NCBI GenBank assembly: GCA_937899715.1
Contig: CALCNX010000049.1
Coordinates: 66,602 to 130,601 of the forward strand
Reading direction: 5' to 3'
Source: an uncultured bacterium
GTDB taxonomy: Bacteria > Bacteroidota > Ignavibacteria > Kapaibacteriales > UBA4661
DNA: 64,000 bases
Within the stretch, counting starts at the first letter, position 1; the number at the start of each line of letters is the position of its first letter. This document shows positions 4,315-63,786 of this stretch, one piece after another. The position numbers were made by a program, and so were the translations under genes. Under the pieces are notes generated by a model, which was not told the origin of the DNA, searched no databases, and worked only from the letters and a program-made list of their open reading frames with translations.

Positions 4315-4343
4315 AGTGCAAATCCTTTTTGCAAAAAATGAGG

Positions 4344-4733
4344 TTACCGTTGATTGTTGTTAATTTCTTCATCCAAGAGCGCCCGTATTTGCTGGAGTTC
4401 CGAGGTCGAAGGTTTGCTCGTTCCAAGCGCTTGCACCACCAGATTCATCGCCGAACCGTGAAAGACCGATGAGAGCAGTTTGCTCACGAAGGCGCTTTGT
4501 ACGTCGCCCTCGCGCACTGCCGCCGAATAGACATGGGAGCGCTGCGATTCATCGCGCGTGAGCAAGCCTTTGTCAGCCATGATTTGCATAAACTTGAGCG
4601 TCGTGGTGTATCCAATCTCATCACCGCCCGCGCGTTTGTTTTGCTCTTCGTTGACGGCGCGGACGGTCGCGCTGCCGTATTGCCAGAGAACGTGGAGTAT
4701 TTCCAGTTCTGCGTCCGTGGGTTTGGGAATCAT
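4344..4733 (-). CDS. BlaI/MecI/CopY family transcriptional repressor (penicillinase-repressor winged-helix)
   Basis: MIPKPTDAELEILHVLWQYGSATVRAVNEEQNKRAGGDEIGYTTTLKFMQIMADKGLLTRDESQRSHVY is the canonical BlaI/MecI N-terminal DNA-binding domain, about 129 aa. The ORF-track start at 4838 is probably too far upstream, so ATG 4733 is preferred. Confidence 0.85.
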   Translation of the reverse strand: MIPKPTDAELEILHVLWQYGSATVRAVNEEQNKRAGGDEIGYTTTLKFMQIMADKGLLTRDESQRSHVYSAAVREGDVQSAFVSKLLSSVFHGSAMNLVVQALGTSKPSTSELQQIRALLDEEINNNQR

Positions 4734-4779
4734 GATTTTCTCCGTGAATTGGAATAAAAGTGATGTCAAAAAATTATCA

Positions 4780-4817
4780 TACGAATATCTTCGTACAATA
4801 TTACGAAATGGTTCGTA
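4780..4817. promoter_or_regulatory. Two tandem 16-bp dyads TACGAATATCTTCGTA and TACGAAATGGTTCGTA, a candidate BlaI-type operator pair 47-84 bp upstream of the repressor start
   Basis: Perfect inverted half-sites TACGAA/TTCGTA with 4-bp spacers at 4780-4795 and 4802-4817. BlaI/MecI/CopY operators are TACA-type dyads overlapping their own promoter. A third half-site ttcgtagaa sits near 4935. Confidence 0.5.
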
Positions 4818-5263
4818 GAAAGTTGCAAAAAAATTCATGGGAAACTAAAATTCCTCGTTAGTAGGAATTTTTGACACGGATTGCAGAGGATTGCTCAGAT
4901 GTTGAAATGTGGTGACATGAGCACCGTACATATTAATCTTCAAAAAAATTCGTAGAACCTGCGAAATCTCCGTTCTTGGGAGTTTGGTCTGATTGTCAGT
5001 GTCGTGTGAAATTCTCTAATGGGTCAAAGAACATTTTTCATAGACGCAGGAAATTATCCTCGTAGTGGAATAAATTTAAGCAATTTACTGCCTTGTCTGA
5101 ACACTGGATTGTTGAACGCATCAAATTCTTGGCTTAGATATTCTCAATATCTCAATGGGCTGTATGAAATCGTGCATCAAACACATAAAATTTTTGACTA
5201 TACTGCTATGTCCTAGGTGATTGAATGGTTCTCGCTAGTTTTGAGGCACTTTTTAAGAGTAGC

Positions 5264-27995: not shown

Positions 27996-28069
27996 TCCGA
28001 AGTAGCTCAGTTGGTTAGAGCATCTGACTGTTAATCAGAGGGTCGTAGGTTCAAGTCCTACCTTCGGAG
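27996..28069 (+). tRNA. tRNA-Asn (anticodon GTT)
   Basis: The cloverleaf was folded by hand. Acceptor TCCGAAG/CTTCGGA. D-arm GCTC-AGTTGGTTA-GAGC. Anticodon stem TCTGA/TCAGA with loop CTGTTAA. T-arm GTAGG-TTCAAGT-CCTAC. Discriminator G. Confidence 0.9.
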
Positions 28070-35184: not shown

Positions 35185-38100
35185 ATGAATTTTGTACTAG
35201 CACAATTGCGTCGCTCCACAAGCGCTTTGCTTGTTGCGTTGACTGCATTTCTTTTGGTAGCCCCTGCTTTGGTCTATGCGCAGTCAACTGCGGATTCCCA
35301 AGTTCAGGGCGAGAGCCGAGATTTCCGCTCGACTCGTAACGGTCGTTGGGTGGACTTGTCCACATGGCAAGTCTATCGCTCAGGCGTCTGGATTGCCGCC
35401 GGACGTGAAGTTGGTGTGCCTAACGGCGCGAGTAACGTTTTCATCGAAACAAACCACACCATTGTGGCTACCCGCGCTGTGCAGGAAGCTATCCAATGGA
35501 ACGGTGCGCAAGCATGGGCGTTCCTCGAGGTAAATAACCTGCATATTAACACTGCTGCGTCTATCACGACGACCTTCGGCAGTTCCAGTATCTCAGGTTT
35601 TACCTATGATGCTCTTGGTAACAACCTCGACCGTTATGACGGCGATGGTAATAGCCGCGCTGCTGTTCTCGGTGGTTCACCGAACTTAGGCAGTGTGAGC
35701 ACATCATTGAGCCAGTTCTCTCCGGTTGCCGGCGGTGTTAATCCGCTTCCCGGTGGTACACTTGGTGGTTACCCGTTCAACCGTATCGGTAACATGGACG
35801 TGTTCTCACCCCAGAACTTTTTGCTTGAGCCGTCGGGTGGACAAGTTCCTACCCCTCGCAACATGGAGTTGCGCGTGTATGGTAAACTCCGCTATTATAC
35901 TGGTAGGGCGTTCGACAAAACCGACCGCTCTGCGAATATCCAAGTGACTGCTGCTACTATCGGTACTGGTTCGACTATTGTTTTCCGCGGTATAACTCGT
36001 ACGATTACATCTCCGGAAGAATGGTCAACCACACTTGCTACACAAACAGGTCGTTTCGACAACACAGCACAAACTGCTGCGTTAGGTTCTGCTGGTACAG
36101 CTGGTGGTTTCGGTTTGCGTTTTGATGACGGTTCGGGTAATGCCGCAGCTGTTAGCCAGGCGCGTATCAATAACTTCCGTGGCTTGATGGGACGTAACTC
36201 GTTCTGGACAGCTGTGTTCGACCTTGGTCGTGTTGTTGACCGTAACTTCTCTGTTGACCAGTTCACTGGTCCGACAGACGATCCTTCGACTGCTATTGGT
36301 ACTCTTCGTGGTAACTTTACCGCAGGTATCATTCAGGTTCGTCGTGGTACAGTTCGTTTTGAAGGTCAGGCGCTTCTTGCAAACGAAGGTGCTCCTACGT
36401 CTGGTTCTATCCAGATTATGAACAACGCTGTTTTGCAAGTTGCTTCTGGTAATATCGGTCGTACTGCTGTGAATCTTTCGCAGTTTGGTAGCCGTTTTGG
36501 TGGTACCTCAACGATTGACCTTTATGGTAGTGGTAATCCTTACCAGCCTGTTCAAACAGACTTGACAGGTAATCCTAATGGTGGTGCTACTCGCGCAGGC
36601 TACTTCTCGCAAACTCCGTCGGGTACATATGGGGTAACTTCCCGTATGCGCTACTTCGTAGTTGAAGAAGGTGGCGCTCTTGATTTCGTTGGCGCTGTTG
36701 GTTCACTTAGTGCTGCTGACGTTCGCTTCAACGGTACGGTTATCTATTCACGTACAGGCGATCAAACGCTTGTTGGTGATTCCCCATTCTTGTCGTTTAA
36801 CCCTGCAGGCACAATCGTCGGTGGCGCTGCTGCTGGTGGCGTTACACTTAATGGTACTGGCGCTGCTGCTGGTACTGGTGGTGTTACCATTAATGCAGGT
36901 GAAAATGGCTTGTTTGACCCGTACAATAATAACTATAATGCTAATGCTGGTGTAACTGCTGCAGGTACTACATGGGCGGGTGATCCTCGTCCGGGTACTA
37001 TTAATGACTTCGGTACAGCTCCATCCGGTCTTGGTGTAGGTACGGCTGCTCTCTTCCAACCTTCCACGACGGCTGCTTACAGCCACCTCGTGTTGCGCGG
37101 TACAGGCACCAAATTCCTCATTGCTACGACTGTAACAATCTCACGCGCGCTCATCTTCCAAGGTGAAGCACGTATGGGCATCCAAAACGTAGCGGGCGAC
37201 GGTACTGTTATCACCATCAACGGTGCTAACCTTGCATCAGGTCTTCCATACTACTTGCAACAGCCTATCGCAGGCGAGTTGGTTGCTAATGACCCTGTAA
37301 GCGGTCGCACGGTTTCACGTGCCGGCTACTTCCCGACATTGGTATATCTTCGTGGTACAGGTTTGACCGGTTTCCGCCAGGAAAACAATATCGGTACAAC
37401 ATTCCGTGGTACGCTTTCAACCGCTACGACTCACACTGAAGCGGATAGCGATCCCGTCAGTGGCGCTCAAGCACAAACGATGTGGTCGGTTTACGGTGGC
37501 AACACTGACCCGGTTATCTTCGTAGGCTTCACGACCGCTTCTACCCGTCCTATCATCTACGATCAGGATATGTACCCAGAAGGTGCTTCCTATCCTATCG
37601 GTATGGTGCTTGCTGGTTCTTTGAACCGTGAGCAGCTTGACATGAGCCCATGGAACAAGCCTGGTGTTGTTCACGGCTTGCCTGCTGAACCGTCATACGA
37701 CGGTAATACTACCGCTATCGGTGATGGACACGGTTCTTCATTCCGTGGTTACACATATACGTCCACAACCCGCTCGCAAACACTTGACGGTGTTCGCACC
37801 GGTCAGGTTATTCGTCAAACTGTTGACCGTGTAAACGGTACCGGCAGCCCGATGACCTTCCCGACCGTTGGTATTGCTAACGTTGCCGGTGTTAACGGTG
37901 GTAACATCATCCGTAACTTCCCGGTTATCACCAATAGCATCCATGACTACGCTATCAATACAAGCGCAACCACAACGTTGCAGTATGACAGCGAAGCGTC
38001 CGATATTATGTCGCAGATTGAGTTCCCGGCTGGTGTAACAGGTCCTCACAACCTTGTGATGAACTGCGCATCGAACGTATCACAAACTCTGCCGATTCGT

Positions 38101-41100
38101 ACCGTTGACTACCGTGGTTTCGACCAATCTGGTATCAACTGGGCTAACGTTGCTGAATTGAACTTCATCAACAAAACCTCAGGTTTGTTCGGTGCTACCG
38201 CAGGTACGATTGTTCTTGGTCCGGAGTATGTGAACTCCACCAATGCAAACTTGCCTCGTAACGCATTCAGCCCTTCGACTGGCTTGTATCAAGCAAGTGC
38301 TATTTACAACCAATCAGGCATCGGTTTGACAAACACGCCGGGCGTTTTGGCTTCAGCATATGTTGATACCCGCCCAGACGTTGCGATTACATCTGCAAAA
38401 ATCAATGACAACTATTATGTCACTGGTGTAGGTGTTCGTCCTTCGGTTTCTCTTACCGGTACCTTCGACGGTCGCGTTCGTGTTGGCTTCCCGACACAAC
38501 GTGTTGTTGGTCCGACCTACCTTAACGGTGGTCAAGCTGCGTATGTTGTTTCCGGTTGGAACAGCGGCGCTCTTCCGCTTGGTCAAAACTCACAAGGTCT
38601 TGCTCAAGACTTCGGTCGTCGTGGTGACTACAATAACTTCGGTGTTGTAGAGCTTCGTCGTGGTAACTTGAACATCCCGAATCGCAATCTTACGTTGAAT
38701 GTTGGTAGTGTTGCCGCTCCGGTAACAGGTACCTTCAACTACTTGTTCGTTCTTTCGTCAACAGCTATCGTCTCGCCTGACCAAGCAAACGTTACGTTCT
38801 TGGGTCAACGCGTAGGTGCTAACAATGCTGCGGCTCAAGTTGTTCTCTCTGAGGCTACTGGTGCTGAGCAATATCCGAGCTTCACCCAGTGGGCAGCAGC
38901 AGGCGTTCGTAACGCTGCGGCTAACCCTGGCGTAGCAGCTCCTGCTGTTATTCGTGGTCCTTCCGGTCCGGCAAACCTTGCTGGTACAATTGTTGGTGGT
39001 TCGCTCTCCAATATCGTCTTCACAGGCGGTACAGGTGGAACCATTGATGGTTCATTCCTTGCATCAGCTCGTAACGGTGGCAGCTCGTCTGTCAACGCAA
39101 CTGGCGCTGCAAATGCTACCTTCACCAACGGTAACGGTCCTCAGCCCGTACACTATGCTGCAACAGACAATGCGAACTCTGGTCTTACCGAGCTTTCGGT
39201 TGCTACCGGTATTCCTGGTCTGCAGGCATTCTCACCGAGCTATGTTCCAAGCATTACTGGTGTTCCGACATCAGCAGCTTCGAACCCATTCCCTAATACG
39301 GCAGTTTCCACCCATCGTTACAATGCAGGTCCTGAGATGACCAGCGATGCTGACGTTACGTTGGCTTCTATCGTTTACGGCGCAGATGCTATTTCTAACC
39401 AAACAGCTCTCGCTGCTGGTATTCAGTCCGGTAACAATCAGGTTTATCCTAACGGTCCGAGCTTGATTACCAATGCTGGTCACACTTCGTCATCATACAA
39501 TGCAGGTATTGTTCGTGCTAACAACGCATGGAACATTGACCTTCCATATGTACGCAGTGGTCTTCAGCACGTAACGTTCCTCCGCGCTACCTCGAACGTC
39601 ATGACGCTCGTTGGTAACTTGGACAACAGCACGAACAATCCTGGTGGCAGCCCGAACGGCATTGACGCACCGGGTCTTACGACTGCTAAACCGGAACTTT
39701 CCGGCTTGCAAGTGTACGGTACAATTGCAACCGCTCGCGGTGATATTGACCTTAACGGTCGTAACATCGAGCTTGGTGGCAACAACTCCATGCTTGTAGA
39801 AGCATTCGAGCGTACACAGTATGTTGACTCCATCGGTGGTCGTCCACGTTGGACAGCTATCCAAGTTGGTATGCCTCGTGGCTTCTCGAACGGTAACATC
39901 AACGGTATCGCTCCTGGTCAGTGGACAAATGGTGTTGTAACAGCACCGTACCGCACCGGCGATCCGCTTCCTGTTTACCCGACCCGTCCGTCATCGGTTA
40001 TCAACAACCACCGCGAAGTTCGCGCGTATATTGGTCTCACCTCTGGTCGTAACATCCAGCCGATGAACCAAAATCTTGGTATCAACCAAGTAAACGAGAA
40101 CCCCGCTGGTCTTGGCGCGTACATCTACCAAACAGCAAACCCGGCTCAGTTCCGTGTTCGTCGTTGGCAGACACGCGGTAACGGTCTTAATGGTGCGCTT
40201 TCGACCCGTCCGGGCGTTCGCACAGCTGACCGCTACTGGCAAGTAGAAACCACCGGCACCATGGCTGTTATCATGGGTCGCTCGGAGATCCGCCTGCAAT
40301 ACATCGATACCGACCTCAACAACGAGAACGGTACGACTTCAGGTCTTCCTCCGGCATCCTTGAATATGTTCCGTGCTCAAGGTCAACCGCTTATTGCTCC
40401 GAACTCACCGTTCATCGGTCCGTTCCAAGCACTCTTCGCTCAACAACTTGTTGGTTTGGATTCCTATAACTTCGTGAAAATGCTCACGATTACTGGCGAT
40501 CGTCAAACAGTAAACGGTGCAACCGTTCTCAACACTGGTAACTTTGCAACCGGTGATCCCGCAAGCGGTCGTTTGCCGGATGCAACCAACCCGCAAAACC
40601 CACAAGCTGGTTTCCAAATCTGGGCTATCGGTATTCCTGCTCCTCGTTGCTTGGTGCTTCGTGGTCAGCGCTTCGGCGGTACCTTCGGTGACCCAATTGG
40701 TAGCGGCTTTGGTGTAGCTGCTGGTCAAGATATTCTTGGCTTCCCGCCTCCATTCGGTTCATTCGCAACCGGCGGTGGTATCAGCACAGCTACTGCTAAT
40801 CAATTTGGTACCATCATCGGACCGTTCAAAGCAGGTTATGCTACGAACGCAACGATCGTTGCAGACCTTCTTGACGAGTTTGGTAACGTTGCTACGACGA
40901 ACTTCTCCACAGGCGCTTCGCTTGTAGTTGGTCAAGTAAGCAATGGTACTCTTGGTCCATGGAATACCGGTGTACCGGCTCTCTTCCAAGGCACAAATGG
41001 CTTCCCGTCAGGTCGCATTGGCGCACTTTCGGGTAATGGTGGCTTGACAGCAAACGCTACTACGGGTGGTCCCGTTGGTGGTCGCTTTGAGTGGCCGAAC

Positions 41101-43965
41101 GTCCGTCTTGACGGTGTGGCTTCGACAACAGTTACCTTCACCTTGGTGAATGACTTCGTTGGCGATGCAACCCAACTTGGTGCTTCCGTTCTTCCGCGTC
41201 TCGACGCGCAAGTAGTGGCAGCAAACGGTGGTTCATTTGCTCTTCCGGTTGCTAACCCAACCTCCACGATTACCTATTGCGATAACCAAGCAGTTCAGGT
41301 TTCGCTCCAAGGTGGTTTCCCATTCAGCGTAACATTTGCTACGCAAAATGCTAACAACACTGGTGCAACGAACCTCTATCCTGGTTCTGTTGGTCCGATG
41401 GCCGCTCCTGGTCGCGTCGCTGCTACTCCTGGCATCGCTACTTCCGGTTATGACGGCTCTATCCCGACAAACCTCACCGGTATTCCGACAAACGGTGTTG
41501 TTGTTGGTCAGACGGTAACATTCCCATATGCTACTCCTGGCTTTAGCAGCATCACGGTTATCGTAAAAGACCGATTCGGTAACTTTGCTTCCTTCCCGAC
41601 GACAGCAACGATTTCTATCGCTGGCGGTTCGCCACCAGTTGATCAGCAGCGCACACCGCTCGTTGGTCAAGTTGCAAACTCAACGGTTGTTTGGGGCTTA
41701 GGTAACCTTGGTCTCGAAACAGCTGGCGCTCCTCAACTTGCTGCACCGGGTATTGCTCGTGTGTACGGTCCGGGCGGCGATGGTCTGACGCAACCTGCAC
41801 AAACAGCACAACAAGTAAACCCTGCGAGCTTGCCAACAGGCACAAGCCTGCTTAATAGCCGCGCTTCACTTGTTTCGCCAGCACTTGCTCCGACCGGTTC
41901 GGGCTATGCTCCGTTCAACAACCCACAAGTTGCTTCGCACTTGGCATCGTTCCCGAACTTCCAAATTTGGGGCGCTACCTCGAGCAACGTAACACTCGTT
42001 GTTTCTTCGACAAACTTTGATCCGAACGCTCCGATTGGTCTTGGCGCTCCGGGCAACACATCGGCTACGATTCACATCGTTCCGGCTGCTGCTATCGGTA
42101 TCGCTCCGGTTATCGTTCCTGATATCTATAACCGTAACCAACCTGACCGTATGCCGTCAAGAATGTACATTGGTCGCTCAAATAACAGCGATCCTCGTAC
42201 ATGGTTCTATGTTCAAGCTGTTGACCAATTCGGCAACCGCGTTGACAATGGTCCGAACGCATACAATGGCGGTACTGCAAACATTACCTTCCGCACGCCT
42301 CAACAAGGCTTGCCTGGCAATGCTGCTGGTACATTCCAGTTCACGCAGACAACCCCTGCTGATCCGTATGTGAAAGCAAACAACCAAGCATATGCTGCGA
42401 CCGGTACATCCGCTCCGGCAGTATTTGGTCTGTACACCTTCAACAACTTTATCCCAACCGGTCCGGCTTCCATCGATCCGCTTGGTAAAGACGTTGTTCT
42501 GACCTTTGAAGACCTTGCGCTTCCAGGTGTACGTGCTCCGCTCGCTTCTGGTGCTACCGGACTCTTCCGTCCGATCCCGCCGGTAACGACTGCAACGACG
42601 ACCTTCTTGCCTGTTCCGCGCGTGAGCTTCTCCGTGCCGGATGCTGGTCAAGCTGGCGCTCCTGCAAACGGTGCTTCTAAAGTTGGTACAAACGTTCTCG
42701 TCCTTGACGAGCGTGCTCGTACCTACATTAGTGGTAACAACACCCTTGAATCTGGCTCACTTCGCGTAAGCCGTGATCCGGGTCAAGTTGCAAACGACAT
42801 CGCAGTTGGCTATACCCTTACCTACTTCAATGCAGCAAATGCAATTGATGCTAGCGGTCGTGTAGTTAATCGTGCTGGTCTTTCGGTTCTTCCGAACATT
42901 GGTACAACCGTACTTCAGCTTCCGGCTCCGCTTCCGGCAGGCGTGGTGGCAACACCTGCTTTCCCGGCTCCGACCCCGGTAGCTATCAATGGTCTGCAAG
43001 GTGACTTGTCGCCTAGCACAACCCCTGCGGGTCGTCCGCAATCCACGGTCAACGTAACAGCACCGGGCGTACCGGGCACGTTCTTCTTGGATGCAGGCGT
43101 ATCGCAACAGCTTGTTAACTTCACAGCTCGTTATAGCGATCAATCATGGGCACGCAATCCTGGTATCCAAGGTCCGCGCGTTGCGGTCTTGAACCTCTTG
43201 CCGCCTGATGCTCAGAACGCAACCATTTATGACGTAGACCGCACCAATGGTGTTGATTCTGGTTTTGTAGTTCTTCTCGACCCGGCAGCAGTACCACCGG
43301 TAATTACCAACGCGATCCAAGACAAACAACTCTTGCGTCCGACCGGTACCGCGCCAACAGAAGACCGTATCGAACTTGAGTCGCCACAATGGCGCCCAGA
43401 TAACGTTCCAGGCTTTGTATTCTATGATGACAACTACAATCCGATGACGTACACCGCTACATCATCCGATCCGACCGTTGTTTCTGTACGTGTACGTGCT
43501 TTGGATTCGACCGTTCAGAATGGTACTGTTGATCCTCGTCCGACCTTGTACTATGCAGTACAACCGGGCGCGGCAGTTGGCGCAAACGTAGTAATTACTG
43601 TTGTTGCTAGCGATGGTACAACGCAAACCGACGGTCAACGTCGTCTTGCTACCGACCAATTCAACGTAACTGTTCGCAATAGCATCACCAGCGTAGCTGT
43701 TGATCCTGCTGCAATCGGCTTCAGCGTATCGCCGAACCCGACAGTTGAACGCTTCACCGTACAAGCAAAAGCTGCAAAAGCTGGCACAGTTCGCGTGAAT
43801 GTTGTCAATATGCTCGGTCAAGTGGTTCGCTCGGTCAACTTTGAAGTTGGCGCAGGCGAAGTTTACAGCCGTGAATTCGATATTGCTAACCTTGCAACAG
43901 GTGCTTATACCGTTCAAATCAATGACGGTGTTAGCGCTTCTGCAATGAAAGTTATCAAAAACTAA
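35185..43965 (+). CDS. Giant (2926 aa) secreted surface protein with a type IX secretion system C-terminal sorting domain
   Basis: Signal peptide MNFVLAQLRRSTSALLVALTAFLLVAPALVYAQ. G/T/N/A/S-rich composition throughout, with no TM. The last ~80 aa (VSPNPTVERFTVQAKAAKAGTVRVNVVNMLGQVVRSVNFEVGAGEVYSREFDIANLATGAYTVQINDGVSASAMKVIKN) are a typical Por_Secre_tail/T9SS CTD. AAGGAG precedes the start. Confidence 0.85.
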   Translation: MNFVLAQLRRSTSALLVALTAFLLVAPALVYAQSTADSQVQGESRDFRSTRNGRWVDLSTWQVYRSGVWIAAGREVGVPNGASNVFIETNHTIVATRAVQEAIQWNGAQAWAFLEVNNLHINTAASITTTFGSSSISGFTYDALGNNLDRYDGDGNSRAAVLGGSPNLGSVSTSLSQFSPVAGGVNPLPGGTLGGYPFNRIGNMDVFSPQNFLLEPSGGQVPTPRNMELRVYGKLRYYTGRAFDKTDRSANIQVTAATIGTGSTIVFRGITRTITSPEEWSTTLATQTGRFDNTAQTAALGSAGTAGGFGLRFDDGSGNAAAVSQARINNFRGLMGRNSFWTAVFDLGRVVDRNFSVDQFTGPTDDPSTAIGTLRGNFTAGIIQVRRGTVRFEGQALLANEGAPTSGSIQIMNNAVLQVASGNIGRTAVNLSQFGSRFGGTSTIDLYGSGNPYQPVQTDLTGNPNGGATRAGYFSQTPSGTYGVTSRMRYFVVEEGGALDFVGAVGSLSAADVRFNGTVIYSRTGDQTLVGDSPFLSFNPAGTIVGGAAAGGVTLNGTGAAAGTGGVTINAGENGLFDPYNNNYNANAGVTAAGTTWAGDPRPGTINDFGTAPSGLGVGTAALFQPSTTAAYSHLVLRGTGTKFLIATTVTISRALIFQGEARMGIQNVAGDGTVITINGANLASGLPYYLQQPIAGELVANDPVSGRTVSRAGYFPTLVYLRGTGLTGFRQENNIGTTFRGTLSTATTHTEADSDPVSGAQAQTMWSVYGGNTDPVIFVGFTTASTRPIIYDQDMYPEGASYPIGMVLAGSLNREQLDMSPWNKPGVVHGLPAEPSYDGNTTAIGDGHGSSFRGYTYTSTTRSQTLDGVRTGQVIRQTVDRVNGTGSPMTFPTVGIANVAGVNGGNIIRNFPVITNSIHDYAINTSATTTLQYDSEASDIMSQIEFPAGVTGPHNLVMNCASNVSQTLPIRTVDYRGFDQSGINWANVAELNFINKTSGLFGATAGTIVLGPEYVNSTNANLPRNAFSPSTGLYQASAIYNQSGIGLTNTPGVLASAYVDTRPDVAITSAKINDNYYVTGVGVRPSVSLTGTFDGRVRVGFPTQRVVGPTYLNGGQAAYVVSGWNSGALPLGQNSQGLAQDFGRRGDYNNFGVVELRRGNLNIPNRNLTLNVGSVAAPVTGTFNYLFVLSSTAIVSPDQANVTFLGQRVGANNAAAQVVLSEATGAEQYPSFTQWAAAGVRNAAANPGVAAPAVIRGPSGPANLAGTIVGGSLSNIVFTGGTGGTIDGSFLASARNGGSSSVNATGAANATFTNGNGPQPVHYAATDNANSGLTELSVATGIPGLQAFSPSYVPSITGVPTSAASNPFPNTAVSTHRYNAGPEMTSDADVTLASIVYGADAISNQTALAAGIQSGNNQVYPNGPSLITNAGHTSSSYNAGIVRANNAWNIDLPYVRSGLQHVTFLRATSNVMTLVGNLDNSTNNPGGSPNGIDAPGLTTAKPELSGLQVYGTIATARGDIDLNGRNIELGGNNSMLVEAFERTQYVDSIGGRPRWTAIQVGMPRGFSNGNINGIAPGQWTNGVVTAPYRTGDPLPVYPTRPSSVINNHREVRAYIGLTSGRNIQPMNQNLGINQVNENPAGLGAYIYQTANPAQFRVRRWQTRGNGLNGALSTRPGVRTADRYWQVETTGTMAVIMGRSEIRLQYIDTDLNNENGTTSGLPPASLNMFRAQGQPLIAPNSPFIGPFQALFAQQLVGLDSYNFVKMLTITGDRQTVNGATVLNTGNFATGDPASGRLPDATNPQNPQAGFQIWAIGIPAPRCLVLRGQRFGGTFGDPIGSGFGVAAGQDILGFPPPFGSFATGGGISTATANQFGTIIGPFKAGYATNATIVADLLDEFGNVATTNFSTGASLVVGQVSNGTLGPWNTGVPALFQGTNGFPSGRIGALSGNGGLTANATTGGPVGGRFEWPNVRLDGVASTTVTFTLVNDFVGDATQLGASVLPRLDAQVVAANGGSFALPVANPTSTITYCDNQAVQVSLQGGFPFSVTFATQNANNTGATNLYPGSVGPMAAPGRVAATPGIATSGYDGSIPTNLTGIPTNGVVVGQTVTFPYATPGFSSITVIVKDRFGNFASFPTTATISIAGGSPPVDQQRTPLVGQVANSTVVWGLGNLGLETAGAPQLAAPGIARVYGPGGDGLTQPAQTAQQVNPASLPTGTSLLNSRASLVSPALAPTGSGYAPFNNPQVASHLASFPNFQIWGATSSNVTLVVSSTNFDPNAPIGLGAPGNTSATIHIVPAAAIGIAPVIVPDIYNRNQPDRMPSRMYIGRSNNSDPRTWFYVQAVDQFGNRVDNGPNAYNGGTANITFRTPQQGLPGNAAGTFQFTQTTPADPYVKANNQAYAATGTSAPAVFGLYTFNNFIPTGPASIDPLGKDVVLTFEDLALPGVRAPLASGATGLFRPIPPVTTATTTFLPVPRVSFSVPDAGQAGAPANGASKVGTNVLVLDERARTYISGNNTLESGSLRVSRDPGQVANDIAVGYTLTYFNAANAIDASGRVVNRAGLSVLPNIGTTVLQLPAPLPAGVVATPAFPAPTPVAINGLQGDLSPSTTPAGRPQSTVNVTAPGVPGTFFLDAGVSQQLVNFTARYSDQSWARNPGIQGPRVAVLNLLPPDAQNATIYDVDRTNGVDSGFVVLLDPAAVPPVITNAIQDKQLLRPTGTAPTEDRIELESPQWRPDNVPGFVFYDDNYNPMTYTATSSDPTVVSVRVRALDSTVQNGTVDPRPTLYYAVQPGAAVGANVVITVVASDGTTQTDGQRRLATDQFNVTVRNSITSVAVDPAAIGFSVSPNPTVERFTVQAKAAKAGTVRVNVVNMLGQVVRSVNFEVGAGEVYSREFDIANLATGAYTVQINDGVSASAMKVIKN

Positions 43966-56186: not shown

Positions 56187-57650
<1,464 letters not shown>

Positions 57651-57764: not shown

Positions 57765-58136
57765 ATGATACAACACGCAAATATCGCCGCGAAGTTTGGT
57801 GCTTTTACTGAAACGTGGACACCAAAGATTATTGGCGATTTGAACGAAAATTTTGTCAAAGTTGCGCGGCTCAAAGATGACTTTGTCTGGCACAGCCACG
57901 AGAATGAAGACGAGCTTTTCATCGTGTTCAAAGGTACTCTCATCATGGATTTTCGTGACCACACGCTTGAAGTAAAGCCGGGTGAAATATTAATTGTGCC
58001 TAAAGGCATAGAACACCGACCACGTACAAACGGCGAAGAAGTCTGGACACTCCTTGTTGAGCCAAAGTCCACCTTGCATACCGGCAATGATACGCATAAA
58101 GTAACGGTCGCGGTAGAAGCACAAGCACGAATTTGA
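57765..58136 (+). CDS. Cupin-domain protein
   Basis: 123 aa with cupin motifs (HSHENEDELFIVFKG ... PKGIEHRP). Confidence 0.65.
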   Translation: MIQHANIAAKFGAFTETWTPKIIGDLNENFVKVARLKDDFVWHSHENEDELFIVFKGTLIMDFRDHTLEVKPGEILIVPKGIEHRPRTNGEEVWTLLVEPKSTLHTGNDTHKVTVAVEAQARI

Positions 58137-58162: not shown

Positions 58163-58570
58163 ATGACCACAGGAAAACCCTTCGACCTCGAAATTATTAC
58201 CCCATCCGGGATTGCCTTTGAGGGTAAAGTAGAGGCAGTAACCGTTCCGGCGAAAGACAAGCCGTTTCAGGTGCTTGCGAACCACGCACCGATTATGGCG
58301 GAACTCGGTATTGGCGCAATCAAATTCAATGATGGTGCGAATAAAGCGACTCTCTTTGCTACGAGCGGTGGTTTCGTGCAGGTACTAAAGAACAAGGTTT
58401 CGTGCGTCGTCGAGACAGCAGAAGAATCTTTGGCTATTGATGCGGCTCGTGCTTTGGAAGCGAAGAAACGCGCCGAAGAGCGTCTGGCTAAACGGCAAGA
58501 ACACGACGCGCTCCGTGCAGAGATGTCACTGGCGCGGGCAATCAACCGACTCAATATTGCCGGAAAATAA
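58163..58570 (+). CDS. atpC: F0F1 ATP synthase subunit epsilon
   Basis: LEIITPSGIAFEGKVEAVTVPAKDKPFQVLANHAPIMAELGIGAIKF. 135 aa with a helical C-terminus. Confidence 0.9.
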   Translation: MTTGKPFDLEIITPSGIAFEGKVEAVTVPAKDKPFQVLANHAPIMAELGIGAIKFNDGANKATLFATSGGFVQVLKNKVSCVVETAEESLAIDAARALEAKKRAEERLAKRQEHDALRAEMSLARAINRLNIAGK

Positions 58571-58588
58571 CTATATGAGTTTTTTTTG

Positions 58589-58645
58589 AAGCGAAGTTCT
58601 CCGAGACGTGCTGTAATGCGCCTTCGGGGAACTTCGCTTTTTATA
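58589..58645 (+). terminator. Terminator-like hairpin plus T-run after atpC
   Basis: gcgaagttctccgag...cttcggggaacttcgc stem followed by ttttt. Confidence 0.5.
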
Positions 58646-58667
58646 TTTCTTGTAAGTATTTTTAATC

Positions 58668-59810
58668 TTGAAAATGATACGTCTTTTTATTGCTCTTAGT
58701 TGTTTGCTGATTTGTGGTACAGAAATATGTGCTAATGCTCTAGATAGCACAGCAGCAATAGAAACTACTCGCACCAAAGCACTTGAACTCATACGCTCTC
58801 AGCGTTTCACCGAAGCTCTTTCCCTTGTTGAGCAAGGAGTGATAAGTTATCCTCGCCATGCTGGGGCACATATTGCTTTAGCACAAATATATCTTGCCGC
58901 AAAGGGGCGTAAAGAAGTATTATTCGATAGTGCAGGATTTAAGGCGCAACGGGCAATCGTAGAAGCATTGAAATGTACAGATACCAACAATGTCGTTGAT
59001 GAATTAATAAATTGGATGCTCGCCGACCCTAATACTGCTTGTCAAATGAGTGTTCATATTGGTAAACTCTTCTATGCAATGGATATGCCGATGGTCGCTA
59101 CGACTTTCTTAAATAGTGCGCTAACGGACTGCCCTTCCGACAGTAATGCTGCGTATGGGAGATACCTACTTGCACAATGCCTTCTTAATACCACATGGCA
59201 AAAACCTTCTTCGCACGCTAATACTACTCACTTGATCCGCTCCACAGAAGTATTGCGCAATAACTTATTTACCGCACTACGTCTGTTGAATGAAGGGATG
59301 GCAATCAATACCACTGCCACGTATTTTTATGGTTTGCTGGGCGATATTCATACCGAACTTGCAATGCTGGGTGATAGCAATAAAACCCAGCACGAGGCGA
59401 TTGCTATCTCTGCGTACAAATCTGCTATTATTACTGCTATCAATCGAAAAGCAGCGCTTGGATTTAAGGAGGATACGGCGAAAACTGATGGAAAATTGCA
59501 CCGAACAGCACGTTTTGATGACTTTGCAATTCAAGATACTGAACCGAATGTAGATATAAGAGCATTATCCCGAAAGATAGCGTATCCAACGCAAGCAAAA
59601 AACATGGGAATGGCGGGTAAGATAATGACCATGGTCTACGTTAATCGTTATGGAGATATAAGAGCGATTATCGTTTACACTAAAGATGCCGAGCCCTTTG
59701 AACCGACTATCACAAATGCTGTTATGAGCACTCCATTTACGCCTGCCAAAGAAGGCCGGATTCCAGTCGGTAGTTTGGTAACAATTCCATTCATATTTCG
59801 CATTCGATAA
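58668..59810 (+). CDS. Secreted TPR-like protein with a TonB C-terminal domain
   Basis: Signal peptide. Helical repeat body. Last ~80 aa (YPTQAKNMGMAGKIMTMVYVNRYGDIRAIIVYTKDAEPFEPTITNAVMSTPFTPAKEGRIPVGSLVTIPFIF) match the TonB_C fold pattern. Confidence 0.55.
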   Translation: MKMIRLFIALSCLLICGTEICANALDSTAAIETTRTKALELIRSQRFTEALSLVEQGVISYPRHAGAHIALAQIYLAAKGRKEVLFDSAGFKAQRAIVEALKCTDTNNVVDELINWMLADPNTACQMSVHIGKLFYAMDMPMVATTFLNSALTDCPSDSNAAYGRYLLAQCLLNTTWQKPSSHANTTHLIRSTEVLRNNLFTALRLLNEGMAINTTATYFYGLLGDIHTELAMLGDSNKTQHEAIAISAYKSAIITAINRKAALGFKEDTAKTDGKLHRTARFDDFAIQDTEPNVDIRALSRKIAYPTQAKNMGMAGKIMTMVYVNRYGDIRAIIVYTKDAEPFEPTITNAVMSTPFTPAKEGRIPVGSLVTIPFIFRIR

Positions 59811-59846
59811 TTTTTCTGTACAACAAACATACCATACCAAGAATAT

Positions 59847-60620
59847 ATGAAAAAACATATCTTCATGTTCGCTTGCTGCATTGCTTTTTGTCTTTCTATC
59901 CCAGCTGCCTTTGCGCAGGAGAGAGATTCTGCTACCACCATGCGGAGCGTGGAGTTCGTCAAAATGGCTGATGGCGTGTGGCGGCACATTTCGCACGTCT
60001 GGTACATGGGCGAAGCCGTGCCATCAAACGGTCTCGTTATCGAAGCAGACAATGAACTATTGATGGTGGACACACCCTGCAACAACCAACAAACCGACAG
60101 TCTGCTCCGATGGGCAGACAAAACCTTCCACAAACCGCTTCGCAAAGTCATTGCCACACACGCGCACGGAGACCGCGTTGGCGGAATAGAGACGCTGCAA
60201 AAACATGGAATTGACGTTTGGACGACACCGCTCACGGGCGAATGGTCGGTGAAGCGTGGCTTTGGTGCGCCCAATAAAGCTATCCTGCCCAACGACACGA
60301 CATTCCGTTTTGGCAAGTTTACACTTCGTGTGTTCTTCCCCGGAGCAGGACATACGGTGGATAATATCGTCGTTTGGATTGCCGAGCCACGAATTGTAGC
60401 GGGCGGCTGCCTTATCAAGACTGCCGAAACGCAGAGTGTCGGCTTTATCGGCGATGCCGTCTTGAATGAGTGGTCGAATAGCGTGCGCAAGGTTGGGGAA
60501 CAGTTTCCAACAGCCTCCGTTGTCGTTCCCGGTCATGGCGCACCCGGTGGTACGGGCTTATTTCAACACACAATCGCTATCATTGAAAAACACTTGAAAC
60601 AACGACCTCCTAAAAAGTAA
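59847..60620 (+). CDS. Subclass B1 metallo-beta-lactamase
   Basis: Signal peptide. All B1 zinc ligands and signature blocks in order: THAHGDRVGG (H116/H118/D120), GAGHTVDNIVVW (H196), GGCLIK (C221/K224), VPGHGAPG (H263). These are near-identical to the BcII-type blocks. Confidence 0.85.
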   Translation: MKKHIFMFACCIAFCLSIPAAFAQERDSATTMRSVEFVKMADGVWRHISHVWYMGEAVPSNGLVIEADNELLMVDTPCNNQQTDSLLRWADKTFHKPLRKVIATHAHGDRVGGIETLQKHGIDVWTTPLTGEWSVKRGFGAPNKAILPNDTTFRFGKFTLRVFFPGAGHTVDNIVVWIAEPRIVAGGCLIKTAETQSVGFIGDAVLNEWSNSVRKVGEQFPTASVVVPGHGAPGGTGLFQHTIAIIEKHLKQRPPKK

Positions 60621-60664
60621 ACAGATAGCAGTTGCACGTTTTTTTATCATGTTTGCATAATTCT

Positions 60665-61471
60665 ATGACACGCCGACTCTTAACTCTTTTTTACTTTGTC
60701 GTTGTTTGGCTTGGATTTTTATTTCAGGCAACCGCACAGAAACAGACTTCCACGACGCAGCGTCCTGAATGGCAGCATTTCTTTGATAGTGCCGGGGTGA
60801 AGGGATGCTTCCTGCTTTACGACACAAAAGCCGCACAGTATCATGCCTATAATCCGAAACGCTGTAAAACACCGTTTCTGCCTGCATCTACCTTTAAGAT
60901 TCCCAATTCGATCATTGGCTTAGAAACAGGGGTTATCAAAGATACGGACTATGTTATCAAATGGGACAGCGTGAAGCGCAGCAGGGATGAATGGAACTGC
61001 GACCACACCTTGCGTTCGGCAATCGCCGTTTCGTGTGTGCCATATTATCAGGAGTTGGCACGGCGAGTGGGTGCAAAGCGCATGAAATCGCTCTTGGATA
61101 CCATGCATTATGGTAATACAAACATCGGCGACGAAATTGATAGCTTTTGGCTTCGTGGACGGCTTCGCATCACGTGTTTCGAGCAAATTGACTTTTTACG
61201 CCGATTTCAAACAGAAACGCTGCCTGTTTCCAAGCGGTCTATGGGCATTGTGAAAGATATTATGCGATTGGACTCCACCGATAAATATGTGCTCCGTGCA
61301 AAAACAGGCTGGACCGACACGCAGCACGTCGGCTGGTTTGTGGGCTGGGTGGAAACCCGTGATAATACACACTTTTTCGCTTGCAATATCGAAATGCCCG
61401 ACAAAAATCCCAAGCCTGCAGCACGGAGGGCAATAGCCGAACATATATTGCGGTCACTGAAGATAATGTAA
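60665..61471 (+). CDS. Class D (OXA-type) beta-lactamase
   Basis: From ATG 60665: signal peptide. Class D motifs STFK (ASTFKIP), SxV (SCVPYYQ), YGN, KTG (KTGWTD), WxxG (GWFVGW). Confidence 0.85.
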   Translation: MTRRLLTLFYFVVVWLGFLFQATAQKQTSTTQRPEWQHFFDSAGVKGCFLLYDTKAAQYHAYNPKRCKTPFLPASTFKIPNSIIGLETGVIKDTDYVIKWDSVKRSRDEWNCDHTLRSAIAVSCVPYYQELARRVGAKRMKSLLDTMHYGNTNIGDEIDSFWLRGRLRITCFEQIDFLRRFQTETLPVSKRSMGIVKDIMRLDSTDKYVLRAKTGWTDTQHVGWFVGWVETRDNTHFFACNIEMPDKNPKPAARRAIAEHILRSLKIM

Positions 61472-61505
61472 TGACTTTCTGTAAGCCATCTACAATAGAA
61501 AAATT

Positions 61506-62231
61506 ATGAAACCAACAGCCATTATCACCGCTGCATCCAAAGGTATGGGCGCAGCAACCGCGCACGAACTTGCTTCGCGTGGATATAATCTCGTTCTGAT
61601 GAGCCGTTCGGCAGATATTCACAGCTTTGCCGAAACGCTTGCTGACAAAACAAGTGTTCATAACACAAGTATTCACGCCGTGCAAGGCTCTGTAACGGAT
61701 GAGCAAGATTTGAAGCGGCTTGTGGAAACGGCAATGAAAAAATTCGGACGTATTGATGCGCTGGTGAATAATACGGGGCATCCGCCGAAAGGCAGGGCAC
61801 TGGCTCTCTCCGATGAAGACTGGCGCACGGGATTTGACCTTATCTTCATGAGCGTTATACGCCTCATGCGCCTTGTTACGCCCGTGATGGAGCAGCAGAA
61901 AAGCGGCGCAGTCGTTAATATCTCGTCCTTCGCAGCATTGGAGCCAAGTGTGGAGCGTCCTGTGTCGTCCACAATGCGGGCAGCACTTGCCAATTTCACC
62001 AAACTCTATGCCCGTGAATACGCCCACGCCAATATCCGCATGAACAGCCTTCTGCCCGGATATGTGGACAGCTACACGATTACGCCGGAAACGCTTGCAT
62101 CTATACCGATGGGGCGCGTGGGGACTGTTGAGGAAGTAGCAAAAACGATTGGCTTTTTGCTTTCGGACGATGCGGCATTTATCACGGGGCAGAATATCGT
62201 GTTTGATGGCGCTATGACGCAGAGGATGTAA
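61506..62231 (+). CDS. SDR family oxidoreductase
   Basis: ITAASKGMGAA (TGxxxGxG variant), NNTG, YxxxK (YAREYAHANIRMNSL region). Confidence 0.8.
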   Translation: MKPTAIITAASKGMGAATAHELASRGYNLVLMSRSADIHSFAETLADKTSVHNTSIHAVQGSVTDEQDLKRLVETAMKKFGRIDALVNNTGHPPKGRALALSDEDWRTGFDLIFMSVIRLMRLVTPVMEQQKSGAVVNISSFAALEPSVERPVSSTMRAALANFTKLYAREYAHANIRMNSLLPGYVDSYTITPETLASIPMGRVGTVEEVAKTIGFLLSDDAAFITGQNIVFDGAMTQRM

Positions 62232-62310
62232 GATCACGAAGCAAAATGTGCTATCAAATGCGCATTTTTTACGATGATAAAATTTTTACCTTTCATTATT
62301 CAAACTCACC

Positions 62311-63786
62311 ATGTCAGTTCGTATTCCCAAAATCTTCCCCGAAGGCTTGACCTTCGACGACGTACTTCTCGTTCCGCGCTACTCCGATGTGCTGCCGCGC
62401 TCGGTCAGCGTTCAGACCAAGTTCACACGTGGTATCACACTGAACATACCCGTCGTGAGTGCCGCAATGGACACCGTTACCGAGTCCGAAATGGCGATTG
62501 CACTCGCCCGCGAAGGCGGTATCGGCATTGTTCATAAAAATATGAGCATTGAAGCGCAAGCGAGCGAAGTAGATAAAGTCAAGCGTTCCGAAAGTGGTAT
62601 GATTCGTAAGCCTATCACATTAAAGCCCACGCAAACCGTCTATGATGCACTGGAGCTGATGGCAAAGTACAAAATTGCAGGATTGCCCGTGGTGGATGAT
62701 TCTATGCGGCTGGTGGGAATAATCACCAATCGTGATTTACGTTTTCAACCTGACAGCGCCTTGCTTATCGGAGAGCTGATGATTAAAGACCGCCTTATCA
62801 CTGCACCCGTCGGTACAACGCTCGAAGATGCTGAGGCAATCTTGCAGCAAAACCGTATTGAAAAACTGCCGGTTGTGGATGAGCAAGGGATTTTACGCGG
62901 TTTGATTACCTTCAAAGACATTCAGAAAAAGAAAAAATATCCGAACTCTTGCAAGGATGAGCAAGGGCGCTTGCGTGTAGGCGCTGCTCTGGGCGTTGCG
63001 CCCGATACGGAGGAGCGCATGGCGGCGCTTATAGCGGCGGGTGTGGATGCCGTCATCGTGGACACGGCTCACGGGCACTCGCGCGGTGTGATTGAAATGG
63101 TTGCTTCGCTCAAAAAGCAATTTTCCGACGCACAAATCATTGCCGGAAATATCGCCACAGCAGATGCTGCAAAAGCGTTGATTGATGCGGGTGTGGATGC
63201 GGTCAAAGTGGGAATTGGTCCCGGTTCAATTTGTACCACGCGCGTTATTGCTGGCGTGGGCGTTCCTCAGATAACGGCAATTATGAATGTGGCAGAAGTG
63301 ACCTTGGACGCGGGCGTACCGCTTATTGCAGACGGCGGCATTAAGCAAACGGGCGACATTGCCAAAGCGATTGCCGCCGGAGCAGATTCTATCATGGTTG
63401 GCGGGATGCTCGCCGGACATGAAGAGTCGCCCGGCGATAAGGTATTACTGGAAGGGCGTGCCTACAAGGTTTATCGCGGCATGGGTTCGATTGGCGCAAT
63501 GCAAAAAGGCTCGGCAGACCGCTATTTTCAAGATGTAGAAGACGAAATTGCGAAACTCGTACCGGAAGGAATCGAAGGACGTGTTCCCTTCAAAGGCAAT
63601 GTTTCGGAAACAATTTACCAGATGACGGGCGGACTCCGCGCCGCGATGGGCTATTCCGGCTGCGCGACGATTGATGAGATGAAGCGTAATGGGCAGTTTG
63701 TACGCATGACAGGCGCGGGCTTGAAGGAGTCGCACCCGCACAATATCTTGATTACGGAGGAATCACCGAATTATTTTGCGAAGTAA
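62311..63786 (+). CDS. guaB: IMP dehydrogenase
   Basis: [11 protein letters not shown]-terminus. Tandem CBS domains. Catalytic loop [11 protein letters not shown]. 491 aa. Confidence 0.95.

Follow-up and report, generated by a model that had tools for sequence, protein, structure and literature searches.

Adjacent genes for predicted subclass B1 and class D beta-lactamases form a chromosomal, guaB-linked but unfixed pair in an uncultured Kapaibacteriales bacterium

The locus of interest lies in a 64,000-nucleotide stretch of contig CALCNX010000049.1, which derives from an uncultured bacterium of the order Kapaibacteriales; the whole stretch is referred to here as the window, and all coordinates are window coordinates. 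Near the downstream end of the window, two genes predicted to encode beta-lactamases of different chemistry sit side by side on the forward strand: a subclass B1 metallo-beta-lactamase gene (59847–60620; 257 aa) and a class D (OXA-type) beta-lactamase gene (60665–61471; 268 aa), both assigned on the basis of NCBIfam models and catalytic residues. They are preceded by a gene for a 380 aa protein with tetratricopeptide repeat (TPR) and TonB_C matches in Pfam (58668–59810), and followed by a short-chain dehydrogenase/reductase (SDR) gene (61506–62231; 241 aa; Pfam adh_short_C2, E 1.8e-50) and by guaB, the gene for IMP dehydrogenase (IMPDH; 62311–63786). On the upstream side, the interval is bounded by the ATP synthase epsilon gene atpC (58163–58570) and a hairpin (58589–58639), consisting of a GC-rich inverted repeat followed by TTTTTAT, that is probably the terminator of the atp genes. 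All of these features are on the forward strand. The content of the interval varies among relatives. Its upstream housekeeping anchor is atpC; on the downstream side, guaB anchors the beta-lactamase slot consistently in the whole clade of related loci.

The genes of the interval are closely spaced, with 36 bp before the B1 gene, 44 bp between the B1 and class D genes, 34 bp between the class D and SDR genes, and up to 79 bp before guaB. The 44 bp are counted exactly from the B1 stop codon (60620) to the class D ATG (60665); the class D reading frame could also start at 60632 (giving 279 aa rather than 268 aa), while homologues in the clade alignment start at 60665. The original prediction, made from the DNA sequence alone, had described same-strand B1 and class D genes 44 bp apart, each with a signal peptide and complete catalytic signatures, behind a gene for a TonB-C-domain protein. 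Each of these elements was recovered: the spacing holds with the ATG at 60665, and the reading frame at 58668–59810 matches Pfam TonB_C at 31.5 bits (cutoff 24.6), its TPR matches being sub-threshold.

The 257 aa protein has Lactamase_B as its Pfam domain, and scores 247.1 bits against the curated NCBIfam model for subclass B1 (NF033088, bla_subclass_B1; cutoff 200), covering 213 of 217 model positions. Against every named family (BcII, COR, PYX, VIM, BlaB/IND/MUS and others) it falls below the curated cutoff, the best being BcII at 186.7 versus 500 bits. BcII also provides the closest solved structure (6dja; E 2.3e-54, 41% identity over 210 aa). The B1 motifs are all present in the translation—HAHGD (H105/H107/D109), GHT (H169), GGCLIK (C188/K191) and PGHG (H230)—and these residues align on positions 116/118/120, 196, 221/224 and 263 of BcII in the standard numbering of class B beta-lactamases (BBL). 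Hence the zinc ligands of both sites are complete (Zn1, His116/His118/His196; Zn2, Asp120/Cys221/His263), and all seven motif residues, Lys191 included, are invariant in an alignment of eight clade sequences. Homology to BcII at E 1e-54 implies the alpha-beta/beta-alpha sandwich fold of B1 enzymes, independently of any structural model. The protein is thus, by its sequence, an intact subclass B1 enzyme, predicted to be di-zinc and periplasmic, that lies outside the named families.

A similar picture emerges for the 268 aa protein, which passes the NCBIfam class D model over its full length (NF012161, bla_class_D_main; 286.6 bits, cutoff 250) and remains below the cutoff of every named OXA family (OXA-1089, OXA-55, OXA-48, OXA-10 and others; best OXA-1089, 238 versus 580 bits; OXA-48, 217.9 versus 580 bits). 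Among solved structures, OXA-517, OXA-48 and the Shewanella enzyme BlaA match it best (E ~1e-61 to 1e-60), with OXA-517 closest (6hb8; E 3.8e-61, 44% identity over 235 aa). The translation contains STFK (S75/K78), SCV (S123–V125), YGN, KTG (K213–G215) and WFVG; STFK, SCV, YGN, W162 and KTG align to OXA-517 and OXA-48, and R254 is also in place. In a 12-sequence alignment S75, K78, S123, W162, K213-T-G and R254 are invariant, with YGN conserved among members of the Kapaibacteria clade. Transpeptidase is the only Pfam domain of the protein, with no M56 domain and no membrane domain besides the signal peptide, and the match to the BlaR1 model (blaR1_generic) is restricted to model positions 349–584, the sensor part, at 191 bits (cutoff 400). 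Taken together, these features indicate a stand-alone secreted protein rather than the sensor domain of a BlaR1 or MecR1 protein: an intact class D serine enzyme, predicted to be periplasmic and of the carboxylated-lysine type, outside the named families. Class D enzymes are common among environmental bacteria, and thousands of homologues were returned by the protein search, the nearest outside the clade being 51–56% identical; the exact protein is also encoded on a 195,719 bp contig (NCBI, ENA).

Both enzymes are predicted to be exported. Sec signal peptides can be read directly from the N-termini (MKKHIFMFACCIAFCLSIPAAFA followed by QE in the B1 protein; MTRRLLTLFYFVVVWLGFLFQATA followed by QK in the class D protein), with predicted ends between AFA and Q and between ATA and Q, respectively, and the alignments to mature PDB chains begin right behind them (residue 37 in B1; residues ~31–33 in class D). 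In comparisons with three relatives, the ratio of non-synonymous to synonymous substitution rates (dN/dS) is 0.05–0.08 for the B1 gene and 0.06–0.08 for the class D gene, near the values for atpD, atpC and guaB (0.02–0.05). Judged by family criteria, each protein very probably works as a beta-lactamase. Together, the two would confer intrinsic resistance to beta-lactams, and the serine enzyme would take over where zinc is scarce and for substrates on which the metallo-enzyme performs poorly.

To place the pair among its relatives, related loci were gathered through exact-protein look-ups and a genome scan, and the window proteins were then mapped onto each. The scan, which covered one genome per GTDB species and used the B1 clade alignment as the query, found three close B1 loci in metagenome-assembled genomes (two labelled Candidatus Kapaibacterium sp. 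and one "Ignavibacteria bacterium"; 86%, 86% and 57% identity). The next matches, in Fibrella, Firmicutes and others, are at most 41% identical, while a search of 5.8 billion proteins returned B1 homologues in Larkinella and Spirosoma at 42–48% identity. Of 41 B1 loci in other taxa, not one has a class D neighbour within 6 kb, indicating that only this clade has the two kinds of gene next to each other. A metagenome scan anchored on atpC, intended as an unbiased sample of the slot, returned one clade locus (L065) and 79 loci from distant taxa, and was not used.

In every clade locus collected, the interval upstream of guaB holds the B1 gene, the class D gene or both. Both genes are present in four distinct loci: in the window, in L014/L015 (identical to the window), in L016 (TPR/TonB_C, B1, class D, SDR, guaB) and in L010 (HicBA, B1, class D, orf174, SDR). 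The B1 gene is found alone in six loci: L017 (atpC, B1, orf174, SDR, guaB), L011 (TPR/TonB_C, B1, SDR remnant, PLD, guaB), L003 (OmpA, B1, YiaAB, guaB), L006 and L009 (both ACP_PD, B1, guaB), and L018 (atpC, B1, guaB). Conversely, the class D gene is found alone in three: L061 (amidase, class D, guaB), L063 (atpC, class D, guaB) and L064 (atpC, TonB_C, class D, YiaAB and further genes, SDR). An IMPDH gene lies downstream of B1 and/or class D in all related loci that are long enough to show it (L003, L006, L009, L011, L014, L016, L017, L018, L061 and L063). On the upstream side, atpC is 60–98% identical among relatives and directly precedes the slot in L010, L016, L017, L018, L063 and L064. In L003 and L004, whose B1 is 70% identical, the B1-guaB block is found on the other side of a DLH-MCP-DAGK-atpD group; this rearrangement indicates that the beta-lactamase gene stayed with guaB, not with atpC.

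Traces of gene-sized change are visible within the slot. L010 and L017 differ by a clean 883 bp indel holding only the class D gene (L010 5449–6331 versus L017 position 3051); it begins directly after the B1 stop codon, its flanks are 89–91% identical, and no obvious target duplications or repeats were seen at it. No remnant of a class D gene was detectable in the corresponding gaps of L017 or L011. The SDR gene is another variable occupant, present in L010, L016, L017 and L064 and reduced in L011 to a 34-codon remnant made up of 10 codons from its start and 24 from its end. Behind this remnant, L011 has a duplicate of the 5' end of guaB (27 codons), then a PLD-like gene and an intact guaB; the remnant and the duplicate (L011 1276–1390 and 1453–1540) are footprints of rearrangement in the slot. 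The interval is, then, a hotspot for gene-sized indels, with the beta-lactamases as its most persistent occupants.

Several lines of evidence bear on how long the two genes have resided here. The identity of B1 to the window copy falls from 86–91% to 70% and then to 57–72% as that of IMPDH falls from 94–96% to 90% and then to 81–86%; class D identity likewise falls with that of IMPDH, from 85–88% to 69–73%. On a neighbour-joining IMPDH tree, lineages with B1 alone and with class D alone interleave, as expected from a vertical history. GC content at third codon positions (GC3) is 0.554 in the B1 gene and 0.513 in the class D gene, compared with 0.51–0.55 in housekeeping genes of the window. No integrase or transposase domain was found by Pfam in the open reading frames of at least 150 aa between 44 and 64 kb, and no inverted repeat suited to an attC site was seen in the 36, 44 and 34 bp spacers, for which no dedicated attC model was run. 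An attC site requires roughly 55 bp or more, so spacers of these lengths are too short to hold one. Repeats in 58500–62400 are limited to short two-copy matches, none of which flanks either beta-lactamase gene. The sole tRNA found by the tRNA scan is at 27996, 30 kb away; no tRNA-linked island lies near the beta-lactamase genes.

Identities that track guaB, low dN/dS, host-like GC3 and the lack of mobile hallmarks point to a long vertical residence of both genes. This agrees with the original prediction that the pair is chromosomal and not a mobile cassette, with no integrase, insertion sequence (IS) or attC site nearby. The description of the genes as an intrinsic pair needs qualification: they are chromosomal and intrinsic, with housekeeping genes on either side, but they are not fixed as a pair, given that relatives carry both, B1 alone or class D alone at the guaB-linked position. 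The slot is best read as one with lineage-specific loss, a history that has moderate support. Most likely, the common ancestor would have carried both genes upstream of guaB, and individual lineages would then have lost one or the other, while other small genes of the interval (TPR/TonB_C, HicAB, the 174 aa reading frame, SDR and the PLD-like gene) would also have turned over.

We next consider the transcription of the locus. The inverted repeat downstream of atpC has 16-nt arms that are 94% complementary, folds at −37.9 kcal/mol (z = −7.1; equalled by 0 of 200 shuffles), and is 81–93% conserved in sequence in L010, L016, L017 and L064. A terminator at this point would set the downstream genes apart as a transcription unit of their own. 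No terminator-like site was found between 58640 and 63209 and, with spacers of 34–79 bp, this makes read-through to guaB possible. In the arrangement that we propose, the beta-lactamase genes would open a new unit behind the atpC terminator, with possible read-through into the SDR gene and guaB. A search of 56–64 kb against Rfam gave only a chance snoRNA match (E 0.62), with no riboswitch or leader. Within the spacer between the two beta-lactamase genes (60632–60664), the sequence TTGCAC-N18-CATAAT ends 3 nt before the class D ATG; it may act as an internal promoter, from which the transcript would have almost no leader, although by the statistics of the promoter scan it is no better than chance.

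A potential regulatory module is encoded at the opposite end of the window, on the minus strand. It was located via the HExxH motif of its M56 (BlaR1-type) protein (1495–4314; 939 aa), a tblastn search with BlaI from S. aureus having failed to recover it, and includes a BlaI-like gene with a Penicillinase_R domain (4344–4838; 164 aa reading frame). The M56 protein has no Transpeptidase (penicillin-binding sensor) domain. Over the C-terminal two-thirds of its length the matches are repetitive and of low score (decapeptide-repeat, MerR-like), which suggests a different signal input. A perfect dyad, TACGAA-N4-TTCGTA, occurs twice at the 5' end of the BlaI-like gene (4780–4795 and 4802–4817; 22 bp start to start) and would be a candidate operator for a repressor of the Penicillinase_R family. 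Pfam homology in the 164 aa reading frame begins only at residue 41, meaning that the true start codon probably lies downstream of the dyads. No copy of the dyad with up to two mismatches was found in 58500–62400. The original prediction had stated that the BlaR1-like protein lost its sensor and that the BlaI operator is absent from the beta-lactamase locus; the first statement stands as regards the missing domain, the loss itself being unproven, and the second holds for the inferred TACGAA-N4-TTCGTA sequence only. With no such dyad near the beta-lactamase genes and no sensor in the M56 protein, control by this module is unlikely, and we infer that the genes are expressed constitutively, without it.

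The opposing view, that beta-lactams induce the pair through the BlaI-like repressor and the M56 protein (1495–4838, minus strand), draws on the presence of a Penicillinase_R repressor and an M56 protease in the same window. Yet the module is 54 kb distant from the pair, and the missing sensor domain and missing operator copies count against it as well; we hold such induction to be extremely unlikely. A more basic doubt concerns whether the proteins are beta-lactamases at all: the first might be some other hydrolase with the metallo-beta-lactamase (MBL) fold, and the second a soluble sensor of the BlaR1 type or a penicillin-binding paralogue. The class D protein does match the sensor part of the BlaR1 model, and the B1 protein has an unusual Phe at BBL position 233, where Asn is usual. 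Neither outcome named as refuting in the original prediction arose, however. The 257 aa protein satisfies the B1 equivalog model and not only a generic MBL-fold model, with its six zinc ligands in place, while the class D protein scores far under the BlaR1 cutoff and has neither an M56 nor a membrane domain. Both genes are under strong purifying selection, and the majority of computationally predicted B1 genes tested in E. coli showed activity (Berglund et al. 2017, PMC5637372). That one or both proteins are something other than beta-lactamases is therefore very unlikely.

The history of the pair can also be read differently. The class D gene may have been acquired recently, as a single-gene unit inserted between the B1 and SDR genes in one sublineage, in which case the pair would be accessory rather than ancestral. 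The clean 883 bp indel with flanks of ~90% identity, the close relatives without a class D gene (L017 and L011) and the other gene-sized indels of the interval are all as expected from such an event. Against it, the deeper, B1-less relatives L061, L063 and L064 carry an orthologous class D gene (66–73% identity) at the same guaB-linked position, and the identity of this gene tracks IMPDH divergence. The synonymous divergence (dS) of the beta-lactamase genes, ~1.0–1.2 and near saturation versus 0.5–0.9 for neighbouring genes, was likewise counted against recent arrival, as were the host-like GC3, the lack of an integrase, IS or attC site, the flanking spacers of 44 and 34 bp, and the distance to the nearest homologues outside the clade. 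We consider recent acquisition unlikely. A more radical possibility is that the guaB-proximal interval of Kapaibacteria is a dedicated exchange hotspot, in which clean single-gene units (the 883 bp class D unit, the B1 gene, TPR/TonB_C, HicAB, the 174 aa reading frame and the PLD-like gene being examples) move without a recognised integrase, IS or attC site. The polymorphism of B1, class D or both would then be maintained by a novel cassette-like mechanism or by recombination-driven allele swapping and, if this were so, read-through into the essential guaB gene could also tie beta-lactamase expression to growth. It is an improbable scenario.

Overall, the explanation that we favour comprises two intact periplasmic beta-lactamases of different chemistry, encoded by an ancestral, guaB-linked pair of genes that was subject to differential loss and is expressed without the BlaI/M56 module; as a whole, we regard it as probable. 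A number of points weigh against it. On the side of the enzymes, the Phe at BBL 233 is conserved throughout the B1 clade, and neither amino acid sequence reveals which substrates are hydrolysed or whether carbapenems are among them. The AlphaFold models are of low confidence and lend weak support only: that of the B1 protein (predicted local distance difference test score, pLDDT, 59.6; eight-sequence alignment) has B1 enzymes as all of its top 50 PDB matches, with BcII the best (template modelling score 0.62/0.70), and that of the class D protein (pLDDT 71.5; 12-sequence alignment) matches best to OXA-517 and OXA-48, exclusively members of the OXA-48 family. As regards expression, no promoter could be assigned, with 10 sites in a sigma-70 scan versus 11.0 expected in shuffled sequence, and the Bacteroidetes-type motif TAnnTTTG was not found in 58500–62400. 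Turning to history, dS is close to saturation, and the IMPDH tree on which B1-only and class-D-only lineages interleave is a neighbour-joining, midpoint-rooted tree of only 10 loci without support values. Finally, homologous recombination between clade members at the conserved flanks would give the same pattern as ancestry plus loss.

The remaining genes of the region deserve brief description. The 380 aa TPR and TonB_C protein is secreted and clade-restricted: its homologues make up only six protein clusters in the search of 5.8 billion proteins. Its gene has a GC3 of 0.346, compared with 0.51–0.55 in its neighbours, and is faster-evolving (dN/dS 0.19). It was found in L016, L011 and L064 and not in L010 or L017; where present, it stands upstream of whichever beta-lactamase gene comes first. 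Further upstream, the list of open reading frames gives atpD at 56229–57650 and a cupin gene at 57765–58136, both on the forward strand. The cupin gene parts atpD from atpC, and genes inserted inside that pair are unusual. A Uma2-family gene, not seen in the window, also lies between atpD and atpC in relatives (L010 2708–3691; L016 3296–4279; L064 473–1475). Elsewhere in the window, a single 2926 aa reading frame (35185–43965, forward strand) combines a signal peptide with repetitive sequence rich in Gly, Thr and Asn; its product is probably a giant secreted or surface protein.

Among characterised enzymes, the window B1 protein is most like those of the BcII/BlaB/IND group, with which it shares the fold, the six zinc ligands and Lys224, as well as a secreted form; by sequence and by fold alike, it matches BcII best. 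It differs from BcII in its sequence (41% identity; 186.7 bits versus the family cutoff of 500), in the Phe at BBL 233, in its Kapaibacteria host and in its linkage to guaB. Chromosomal B1 genes are common in Bacteroidetes, where they occur in 22.4% of genomes (PMC5637372). The window class D protein, for its part, resembles the OXA-48-like enzymes (OXA-48, OXA-517 and Shewanella BlaA) and the environmental OXA-1089 and OXA-55 in its STFK, SxV, YGN and KTG motifs, Trp154/157 and Arg250. At 44% identity to OXA-517 it is well separated from them, with the named families far under cutoff, and its beta5-beta6 loop (TDTQHVGW) is shorter than the STRIEPKIGW type found in OXA-48-like enzymes. Because this loop differs, carbapenemase activity is not inferable for the window enzyme.

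As a combination, the pair recalls two known types of arrangement. Chromosomal sets of metallo- and serine beta-lactamases occur in Stenotrophomonas (L1 and L2), Elizabethkingia (BlaB, GOB and CME), Bacillus cereus (Bla1 and Bla2) and Fluoribacter gormanii (FEZ-1 and OXA-29). As in the window, a metallo- and a serine enzyme are encoded together in one organism, for which complementary spectra would be expected. To our knowledge, the genes of these sets are not adjacent, and several have known regulators (AmpR, SigP/RsiP); in the window, the two genes are 44 bp apart. Class 1 integron arrays, on the other hand, combine blaVIM or blaIMP with blaOXA cassettes and so share with the window a same-strand tandem of B1 and class D genes. 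The window differs from such arrays in that it has no intI gene, spacers of 36–44 bp, host-like composition and housekeeping flanks. Our literature search found no description of beta-lactamases from Kapaibacteria (or Ignavibacteria), and nothing specific on adjacent chromosomal B1 and class D pairs.

The clinical relevance of the locus is low at present: nothing points to mobility, and the bacterium that carries it is environmental and uncultured. Both sequences are nevertheless useful for resistome reference sets and functional screening, as a useful but ordinary resistome record. They add two beta-lactamase lineages, each less than 45% identical to any solved enzyme and less than 57% identical to any sequence outside the clade. 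The co-residence of a metallo- and a serine enzyme by one housekeeping gene, in which one of the partners was lost repeatedly, amounts to a small natural experiment on redundancy versus complementarity. Compared with the systems above, the locus is set apart by its host group, by the low identity of its products to characterised enzymes, by chromosomal adjacency without integron features, and by a guaB-linked presence/absence polymorphism.

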